A stretch of DNA of 64,000 bases. Source: Escherichia phage vB_EcoM-E33. Below are positions 24,293 through 24,674 of the stretch, piece by piece (the first letter of the stretch is position 1; every line of letters starts with the position of its first letter). The notes beneath the pieces were generated by a model, which saw only the letters and a list, made by a program, of their open reading frames with translations, made no database searches and was not told the DNA's origin. The DNA is taken from sequence record OL780484.1. One strand, 5' to 3'. The position numbers and the translations under genes are program-made.

Positions 24293-24531
24293 AATGAAGA
24301 CTATTATATAGTCAAGCCGTCGTATGAAGACTGATTACCAGCATTCACCGGCGCAACAAACAAGAAACCGGGTCGCTACCGGTAAGTCGTCGGACTGATG
24401 TTCCCTGAGTAAGGACTGGCATTAACAAATCTTTACGATCTGTTAACGTCCCCTTACATCACAGCAGAAACGGCGCACCGAATTATCGATTCGAGGAAAT
24501 ATCTTTGCCGTAAGCCGAGTAGCGTTTTTGA

Positions 24532-24623
24532 CGGAACGTTCGGATATGGTCGAGATATGGCCTTTTAAAAATATTGAGTGGCGTCAACTACTTAATAACC
24601 GGGTTCGAATCCCGGCGTTTCGT
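24532..24623 (+). other. tRNA-like 3' element (T-arm plus acceptor-like pairing) without canonical cloverleaf; possible pseudo-tRNA or small stable RNA
   Basis: ccggg-ttcgaat-cccgg T-arm-like hairpin; cggaacg can pair with cgtttcg, but no canonical D or anticodon arm could be drawn. Confidence 0.25.
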
Positions 24624-24674
24624 ACAAACACTTGCCTAGCAGGTGGAACCCCGACAAGGTTACCCTAGGTTAAA

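Follow-up and report, generated by a model that had tools for sequence, protein, structure and literature searches.

A 64,000-nucleotide (nt) stretch of the genome of Escherichia phage vB_EcoM-E33 (record OL780484.1), which we refer to as the window, carries two small RNA genes between its transfer RNA (tRNA) genes and a terminator, and these are very probably the Dhakavirus copies of rnaD (24294-24480) and rnaC (24487-24623) of phage T4, that is, RNAs already known. The second of them, rnaC, is a tRNA-shaped four-way junction whose acceptor stem is built from its own two ends, and it offers tRNA end-processing enzymes the geometry they recognize: 12 stacked base pairs (bp) of acceptor and T stem, a discriminator base, and a CCA-type end. 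From sequence comparison, we propose in addition that the loops of its two remaining arms, a long arm and a 10-bp hairpin, pair with each other as kissing partners. The stable RNAs of the T4 tRNA operon have been known since the 1970s. In T4, RNAC has been detected on a Northern blot, and RNAC and RNAD have been classed as late RNAs "of yet unknown functions" (PMC9697503); the roles of the T4 stable RNAs are also given as unknown in PMC3014915, and PMC12685909 likewise assigns them no function. As a discovery the feature itself is minor, being the known rnaD-rnaC pair of T4 in nearly identical sequence; what the analysis adds is a covariation-backed structure for rnaC, a candidate tertiary contact, the existence of two arm types, and a map of presence and absence.

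A megablast search with positions 24100-24740 matches Escherichia phages QL01 and WG01 at 100% identity and KIT01 at 99.4%. KIT01 is classified in the Tevenvirinae, genus Dhakavirus, and judged by these matches the window is a T4-like phage of that genus and of the QL01/WG01 type. The same search matches T4 records in which the region is labeled "species 1 RNA" and "species 2 RNA" (X03016) or "rnaC" and "rnaD" (HM137666 and several RB phages); rnaD and rnaC are the HM137666 names for the species 2 and species 1 RNAs, respectively. The order annotated in X03016 is tRNA-Arg, the species 2 RNA (120 nt, two bases past the tRNA CCA), a 6-nt spacer, the species 1 RNA (137 nt), and a potential terminator, and in pairwise alignment the window is colinear with T4 from tRNA-Arg to the terminator save for a 66-nt gap. 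A preliminary description, drawn from the letters of the window, had suggested that the region might encode RNAs analogous to the two T4 stable RNAs. The alignment to T4 agrees: the RNAs are orthologous and have the same order, strand, trailer, and terminator. The same description started the non-coding stretch behind the tRNAs at 24293, and ARAGORN ends the tRNAs at 24292.

The rnaC homologue (24487-24623, plus strand, 137 nt by alignment to X03016) matches T4 at 138 of 140 aligned bases. Neither difference disturbs the structure: one lies in an internal loop, and the other turns an A-U pair into G-U. The rnaC family model scores this segment at 166 bits, its sole match in the 64-kb window, and T4 itself at 167.6 bits. 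In X03016 the annotation of T4 rnaC starts at the first acceptor base and stops at the discriminator; in the window the 3′ flank, ACA (24624-24626), occupies the position of a tRNA CCA. The oligonucleotide used as the RNAC probe in PMC9697503 is identical to window positions 24486-24543. Like the T4 species 1 RNA, the window copy lies on the tRNA strand, after rnaD and before the trailer, with the same acceptor and T-arm ends; it differs in belonging to a Dhakavirus genome, some relatives of which have no rnaC, and in being known here from its sequence alone.

To describe the structure we used rnaC homologues from an annotated phage collection, IMG/VR, and metagenomes. RNAalifold was run on 17 distinct sequences (alignment A3), followed later by an alignment of 26 sequences from at least 10 genera (A7), and a covariance model built from the alignment (R1) served, together with low-coverage BLAST matches, to find divergent homologues. 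The same four-way junction emerges from the RNAalifold consensus of the 17 sequences and from the minimum-energy fold of the rnaC sequence of the window (−49.8 kcal/mol, z = −3.8). The 5′ strand of the acceptor stem is followed immediately by the long arm, then by an A-rich linker, the 10-bp hairpin, a single base, and the T stem. In the acceptor stem, CGAUUCG (24487-24493, plus strand) pairs with CGUUUCG (24616-24622) with two U-U mismatches, and U24623 follows as the discriminator, placed by alignment with the annotated 3′ end of T4. The long irregular arm (24494-24563, about 70 nt) takes the position of a D arm and carries the apical loop UUGACG (24528-24533). The 10-bp hairpin (24572-24597) has a 6-nt loop, CGUCAA (24582-24587), and the T arm (24599-24615), a 5-bp stem with the 7-nt loop UUCGAAU, abuts the 3′ strand of the acceptor stem.

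The length of rnaC homologues stays within 139-143 nt, and across A7 94.7% of cells are paired, with compensatory changes in 33 of the 51 pairs. None of 500 shuffles matches this pairing, and sliding the partners lowers it to 37-46%. Compensatory changes are found in nine of the 10 stem pairs of the hairpin and, once the type B homologues described below are included, in 18 of the 23 pairs of the long arm. In the acceptor stem the compensatory exchanges are A-U for G-C (pair 3) and G-C, A-U, or G-U for one another, and in phiR1-RT the stem is a perfect 7 bp. Constancy of sequence is confined to the junction (CG..CGAGGA, GGCCUU, and the A-rich linker), the two kissing loops, and the ends. Klebsiella phage CP-p-KP-21072 encodes the 3′ end ...CGUUCCG-U-CCA, where other copies have ACA or UCA.

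Several observations weigh on the other side. The acceptor stem has its two U-U mismatches in most lineages, with 74.9% of cells paired, and in T4-type sequences an internal CGGAACG, 88% paired, is a possible competitor for the acceptor 3′ strand. The T loop varies by lineage (UUCGAAU, UGCAUGC, or UGCAUUC), so that rnaC need not depend on canonical tRNA enzymes. Shuffle controls overstate significance because the sequences are related, and A7, like A6, was fitted to a model of the nested structure and is biased toward it. The processing sites, CCA addition, and stability ascribed to rnaC and rnaD in the window phage are presumed by analogy with T4, and a protein-recognized domain on a tRNA handle, the mechanism proposed below, is something we infer.

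The internal CGGAACG bears on what the preliminary description had seen in this segment, namely a T-arm-like hairpin accompanied by acceptor-like pairing. The hairpin, CCGGG-TTCGAAT-CCCGG, is the T arm at 24599-24615. A 7-bp pairing of CGGAACG (24532-24538) with CGTTTCG (24616-24622) does exist as well, but the true 5′ strand of the acceptor is 24487-24493: the internal alternative lacks any compensatory change, its score falls short of that of its shuffles, and it does not hold in the phiR1-RT lineage. That the element lacks a canonical cloverleaf was correctly noted, there being no RF00005 match to it and neither a D arm nor an anticodon loop in the structure derived from covariation. ARAGORN reports no tRNA and no transfer-messenger RNA (tmRNA) 3′ of 24292, and in an Rfam scan of 23600-25300 with E values up to 10, only the two tRNAs reach the gathering threshold. 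A match to the Rfam tRNA-Sec family at 24531-24623 (16.6 bits, E = 5.5, gathering score 47) is at chance level.

A pseudo-tRNA was the other suggestion made for this segment, and of it the tRNA-like character of the 3′ element survives, but not the decay. A degenerating tRNA, disrupted by insertions and free of any selected structure or function, would explain the acceptor stem and T arm, the partial tRNA calls ("tRNA-???" in G9062 and a false tRNA-Met at 8491-8585 of PG7), and the weak tRNA-Sec match. It would not be expected to keep a constant length, compensatory changes in most of its pairs, and a conserved junction and kissing loops over at least 10 genera, nor to give the stable, abundant transcript that T4 has, and we regard it as extremely improbable. 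Conservation in relatives, the lack of which was to count against the preliminary proposal, is found, rnaC covarying across the 26 homologues.

The evidence for the kissing interaction is of the same kind. The long-arm loop, UUGACG, is the exact complement of the hairpin loop, CGUCAA, and this complementarity is kept in all 42 copies of the first homologue set. Among 25 distinct sequences the kissing helix is 100% paired, with both partners changed at two of its six pairs: one compensatory double change (UUGAUG with CAUCAA) marks the phiR1-RT lineage, and a second, independent one (UUGGCG with CGCCAA) marks CP-p-KP-21072. The columns of the kissing loops are unpaired in the covariance model, so the fitting bias described above does not affect the loop-loop pairing. 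As points against it, the interaction rests on these two compensatory events, and the loops could instead pair between molecules or take part in an alternative extended duplex. In phage KaAlpha (locus L051, 236-375), a 15-nt stretch of one kissing arm, AAAGUAGUUGACGCU, can pair with the other, AGCGUCAACUACUUU, and because of this complementarity the minimum-energy fold is an extended duplex and not two hairpins. The modeled duplex may hint at a switch from kissing loops to duplex or at intermolecular pairing. A further observation concerns the same two arms: the 9-mer GAGTAGCGT of the long arm (24517-24525) recurs in the 10-bp hairpin (24576-24584). The repeat is exact in T4 and reads GAGTGGCGT in the second copy of the window, which suggests an internal duplication at the origin of rnaC.

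The long arm exists in two types. Type B has a divergent long-arm sequence with the same architecture and is found in the Klebsiella phages KaAlpha, CP-p-KP-21072, and the Marfa group, in Kosakonia phage 305, Edwardsiella phage PEi20, Citrobacter phages NM4.3 and Ursula, Salmonella phage Melville, and Proteus phage ABTNLPp2. The types alternate among close relatives: PG7 (A) versus KaAlpha (B) in Karamvirus, Moon (A) versus NM4.3 (B) in Moonvirus, and EcS1 (A) versus 305 and PEi20 (B) in Kanagawavirus. Pattern scans of IMG/VR and metagenomes had been keyed on a presumed invariant core, GAGTAGCGTT..AACGTTCGGAT, and returned only T4-type, Entb_45-type, and phiR1-RT-type copies and one random match (L027). 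The core is not universal, the type B arms having surfaced through low-coverage BLAST matches and the covariance model. A locus search keyed on dNMP kinase gave Dhakavirus relatives only. In the accessible literature we found no description of the loop-loop interaction or of two interchangeable long-arm types.

Compared with a canonical tRNA, and a class II tRNA especially, rnaC shares the 7-bp acceptor stem, the 5-bp T stem with its 7-nt loop, the discriminator, the CCA-type end, and placement in tRNA arrays with the spacing of tRNA genes. It differs in having no D arm and no 7-nt anticodon loop, and instead a 70-nt arm, a loop-loop contact, and a variable T loop. The tRNA-like domain of tmRNA resembles rnaC in that paired ends form an acceptor next to a T arm, with a large insertion that is not tRNA. 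tmRNA is about 360 nt long and contains a tag reading frame and a series of pseudoknots; rnaC, at about 140 nt, has neither. Pair 3:70 of rnaC is A-U or G-C and never G-U, unlike the G3-U70 pair of tmRNA, and neither ARAGORN nor Rfam finds a tmRNA in the region. A tRNA-like module that lends an attached structured RNA exact processing as well as stability, the part we envisage for the acceptor and T arm of rnaC, is also found in engineered Escherichia coli tRNA scaffolds and in the YrlA Y RNA. Here, in distinction to these, the RNA is natural and phage-encoded, and its cargo stands in for the D arm as well as the anticodon arm; no match to the Rfam Y RNA family occurs in the region.

The other RNA, rnaD (24294-24480, plus strand), spans 187 nt in the window, counted from the position equivalent to the T4 5′ end, versus 120 nt in T4, as aligned to X03016. 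Its core (24363-24480) aligns with T4, the ends being identical and the apical hairpin diverged. The 5′ 45 nt and about 30 nt at the 3′ end are nearly identical to the T4 species 2 RNA, and the two-hairpin architecture and the 6-nt spacer to rnaC are shared with it. The differences are a 66-nt insertion, the diverged apical hairpin, in which the changes are compensatory, and a CACCG end. From 11 homologues RNAalifold derives 33 pairs, eight of them compensatory, arranged as a 5′ hairpin (ACCGG/CCGGU) and a long irregular hairpin closed by GUCGUCG/CGGCG-AC. A GUAAGG/CCUUAC segment covaries, and the tip is hypervariable yet base-paired. The full-length window RNA folds at −52.3 kcal/mol (z = −3.0), the insertion adding two hairpins at the 5′ end. 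Because its 3′ end sits in the base of the long hairpin, rnaD is not tRNA-like. That end reads CACCG in the window, CACCA in T4, and CCG, CAG, or CCT elsewhere, so that among the copies compared T4 alone encodes a CCA there. A minus-strand "terminator" at 24383-24367, reported by a consensus scan, is an artifact of reading the rnaD 5′ hairpin, ACCGGGUCGCUACCGGU, in the wrong orientation.

Their distribution over phage sequences shows that rnaC and rnaD are cassettes separate from each other and dispensable. Every combination of the insertion and rnaC is represented in Dhakavirus. Neither is present in JS98 and VR5, where rnaD leads directly into the trailer. In vB_EcoM_005 and IME341 the insertion is there without rnaC, and QL01, like the window, has both. 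In all four phages that lack rnaC the difference is a clean indel of about 150 nt. The opposite combination, rnaC without rnaD, is found in Entb_45, phiR1-RT, the Winklervirus phages, and Melville. RB69 has both RNAs, 3′ of an open reading frame (ORF) of 114 amino acids, ORF150c. This ORF also precedes rnaD at three further loci (L008, L009, and L021) and, by its primer sequences, is the "T2L trna.2 ORF" of PMC2330249. Elsewhere rnaC lies within tRNA arrays with spacers of 6-9 nt, as in the order Trp-rnaC-Gly of Salmonella phage Melville. SegB-type homing endonuclease genes are present in the region in T4 and LHE83, consistent with the mosaic pattern. The GIY-YIG endonuclease gene of LHE83, a Dhakavirus phage, lies between the CAU tRNA and tRNA-Arg (L028, 452-1117), as does segB in T4 (L002, 1618-2283). 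SegB recognizes the T-stem-loop motif of tRNA genes (PMC2330249), and the T arm of rnaC bears this motif as well.

The two RNAs appear to belong to a single operon. A MotA-type middle promoter was found by pattern match at 23725-23751 on the plus strand (TATGCTTTA, 12 nt, TATTAT; full sequence TATGCTTTAAGAGTAATGTGTTATTAT). It aligns with the −35 and −10 regions of PM2 annotated in X03016 and, on the strength of this alignment, is the homologue of that promoter, serving the tRNA and stable-RNA operon. In T4, the middle promoter of the tRNA cluster gives rise to a precursor of about 1.75 kb that contains the tRNAs and the species I and II RNAs and ends past the species I gene (PMC2330249). Downstream of the window promoter lie a tRNA with anticodon CAU (24136-24212), which ARAGORN calls Met, and a tRNA-Arg(UCU) of the T4 type (24218-24292, ARAGORN), both on the plus strand. 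Beyond rnaC come a conserved, structured 3′ trailer (24627-24671, plus strand), common to T4, RB69, and the Dhakavirus phages without rnaC, and an intrinsic terminator (24672-24702, plus strand), predicted by folding as a GC-rich hairpin followed by a U run and homologous to the "pot. terminator" annotated in X03016. With this promoter on one side, the terminator on the other, and the tRNAs on the same strand, rnaD and rnaC would be made as one precursor with the CAU tRNA and tRNA-Arg. A simple promoter and terminator scan overlooks both the plus-strand terminator and the MotA-type promoter.

Two side observations concern the tRNAs. The CAU tRNA is assigned to Met by ARAGORN and in many records, and its T4 counterpart is annotated as tRNA-Ile; the assignment hinges on modification of the anticodon. 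Between the middle promoter and this tRNA the window has a 90-amino-acid ORF (23858-24130), where T4 carries six further tRNA genes (Gln, Leu, Gly, Pro, Ser, and Thr); the window phage keeps only two tRNAs.

How the structure might be used can be outlined as follows. RNase P would cut the rnaC precursor at C24487, the 3′ end would be trimmed to U24623, and a host enzyme would add CCA. The acceptor and T-arm module would act as a handle for processing and stability, akin to an engineered tRNA scaffold, and the junction with its kissing-loop domain would be the working part, more likely as a shape read by a protein than through antisense pairing. We favor a protein-read shape because the loops that are conserved are each other's pairing partners and conservation extends to no long single strand. 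These two features of rnaC also count against a reading in which rnaC or rnaD, or both, would be trans-acting antisense small RNAs directed at phage or host mRNAs. PMC9697503 does refer to them loosely as "small regulatory RNAs," and rnaD has conserved internal loops, but no characterized trans-acting small RNA is known in T4 (PMC3014915), and we judge this reading improbable.

A different account would make rnaC and rnaD by-products of processing of the tRNA operon, acting only in cis as structured spacers and a 3′ cap that would shield the precursor from exonucleases and position RNase P and RNase E cuts. Both always lie inside tRNA transcription units with short spacers, and the 3′ end of rnaD sits in the base of a stable helix, as would suit an exonuclease stop. 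Both are also dispensable, since JS98 and VR5 have no rnaC, many genera have no rnaD, and the tRNA region of T4 is non-essential (PMC2330249). However, the length, junction, and loop complementarity of rnaC stay constant over at least 10 genera while its stems drift, which exceeds what a spacer needs; rnaC occupies various places in tRNA arrays and not just their 3′ end; and a convergent, adaptive single-nucleotide polymorphism in rnaD has been reported from the adaptation of a T4-like phage to a semi-permissive host (PMC12685909). A purely cis role therefore seems unlikely to us, although less so than antisense action. Natural loss in close relatives, together with the reported non-essential nature of the T4 region, points to a role that would be accessory and host-dependent. 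In one specific form of it, rnaC would be a natural tRNA-scaffolded RNA whose acceptor and T-arm module serves solely to let the tRNA machinery of the host excise, CCA-tag, and stabilize it, and whose junction and kissing-loop domain is a trans-acting decoy or ligand for a tRNA-binding factor of host or phage, such as a tRNA-targeting defense nuclease or a processing enzyme. This is tentative and on balance doubtful; if true, it would make rnaC an RNA-based host-range or counter-defense factor.

Only the junction and loops of rnaC are constrained in sequence, and these, with the natural presence and absence variants, offer experimental handles on a question of function that is decades old. The alignments could serve annotation as well. 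In GenBank rnaC is often labeled "tRNA-OTHER," "tRNA-Met," "tRNA-Lys," or "tRNA-Phe," placed under coding sequences for a "hypothetical protein," or left unannotated, as rnaD often is; examples of mis-annotation are G9062 (L023, 540-635) and PG7 (L016, 8491-8585), in which ARAGORN calls a false 95-nt tRNA-Met. Rfam 15 holds no family for rnaC or rnaD, and the present alignments could seed one.

The extra length of rnaD in the window is due to the clade-specific insertion of 66 nt near its 5′ end (24297-24362, plus strand, ambiguous by 1-2 nt), defined by the gap in the T4 alignment. It lies directly 3′ of the tRNA-Arg CCA, contains two predicted hairpins (24299-24313 and 24316-24354), and is found by blastn in 26 Dhakavirus records, with identities of 98.6% or more, and in none outside these. 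We infer that it is a recent addition to the rnaD leader in this clade and not a gene. Its 3′ end (CGGCGCAACAAA, 24349-24360) matches the 3′ end of rnaD (CGGCGCACCGAA, 24471-24482) at 10 of 12 positions, so that it is possible, judging from this short match, that the insertion is a partial duplication of the rnaD 3′ end; taken as a whole, the insertion is not significantly similar to the rest of rnaD. A blastn search for a source of the insertion found none.

Both copies of the repeat ATGAAGACT, given correctly at 24294 and 24324 in the preliminary description, are contained in the insertion, where they read MKTII followed by a stop and a 24-amino-acid ORF, respectively. They had been taken for decayed starts of genes for internal proteins, an idea that the sequence does not bear out. 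The 9-mer occurs six times in the window, with 0.56 expected from shuffles, and one of the four copies outside the insertion is a gene start; being frequent and rarely a gene start, it is a common word of the genome rather than a start signal, even if two copies 30 nt apart are still unlikely by chance. No ribosome-binding site precedes either ATG, and in vB_EcoM_005 the reading ATGAAGGACT breaks the second MKT frame. Genes for T4-type internal proteins have an intact ORF, a ribosome-binding site, and a leader of the form MKTY(N/Q)EF..LxE; the ORFs here are 5 and 24 codons long and have no ribosome-binding site. The insertion shows no similarity to the internal-protein-like genes of the window (22387-22716 and 24738-25202), for which 73-79% of shuffled inserts score equally.

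A gene remnant could also be of another kind, namely of an ORF of about 110 amino acids, the "T2L trna.2" ORF or ORF150c of RB69. A gene of this type stands at exactly the insertion site, between tRNA-Arg and rnaD, in RB69 and at the three loci named above, and a match, CGTATGAAG..TGATT, joins the insertion to the 3′ end of ORF150c-type genes, so that the insertion is possibly the deletion scar of such an ORF. The match is short and marginal, with 14-17 of 500 shuffles doing as well; it lies at different distances from rnaD in the two sequences; and the insertion is confined to its near-identical records. Taking both kinds of gene together, we see a decayed remnant as a possible, if somewhat unlikely, origin of the 66 nt, the internal-protein version being weakened further by the shuffle result, the missing ribosome-binding site, and the lost frame of vB_EcoM_005.

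No ORF longer than 25 codons had been reported for the region, which is true of ATG starts. With TTG starts there are two, one of 46 amino acids at 24528-24668 and one of 34 amino acids on the minus strand. The former was considered as a gene and rejected, since the frame is interrupted by stop codons in T4 and in most homologues.

In the surrounding DNA, the ORFs at 22387-22716 and 24738-25202 both start with MKTYNEF, a leader of the capsid-targeting type of T4 internal proteins. A late promoter, TATAAATA, lies at 24704 ahead of the second. vB_EcoM_005 and IME341 carry this second ORF, and it is absent in JS98 and VR5, where the gene equivalent to that at 25226 of the window stands directly 3′ of the terminator, which makes this a second indel adjoining the RNA genes. 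The tRNA arrays of other phages contain unannotated gaps of 90-285 nt, as in Entb_45 (L004, 342-626) and the Winklervirus phages (L040 and L041, 231-320); they give no match to the rnaC model and could encode further small RNAs.

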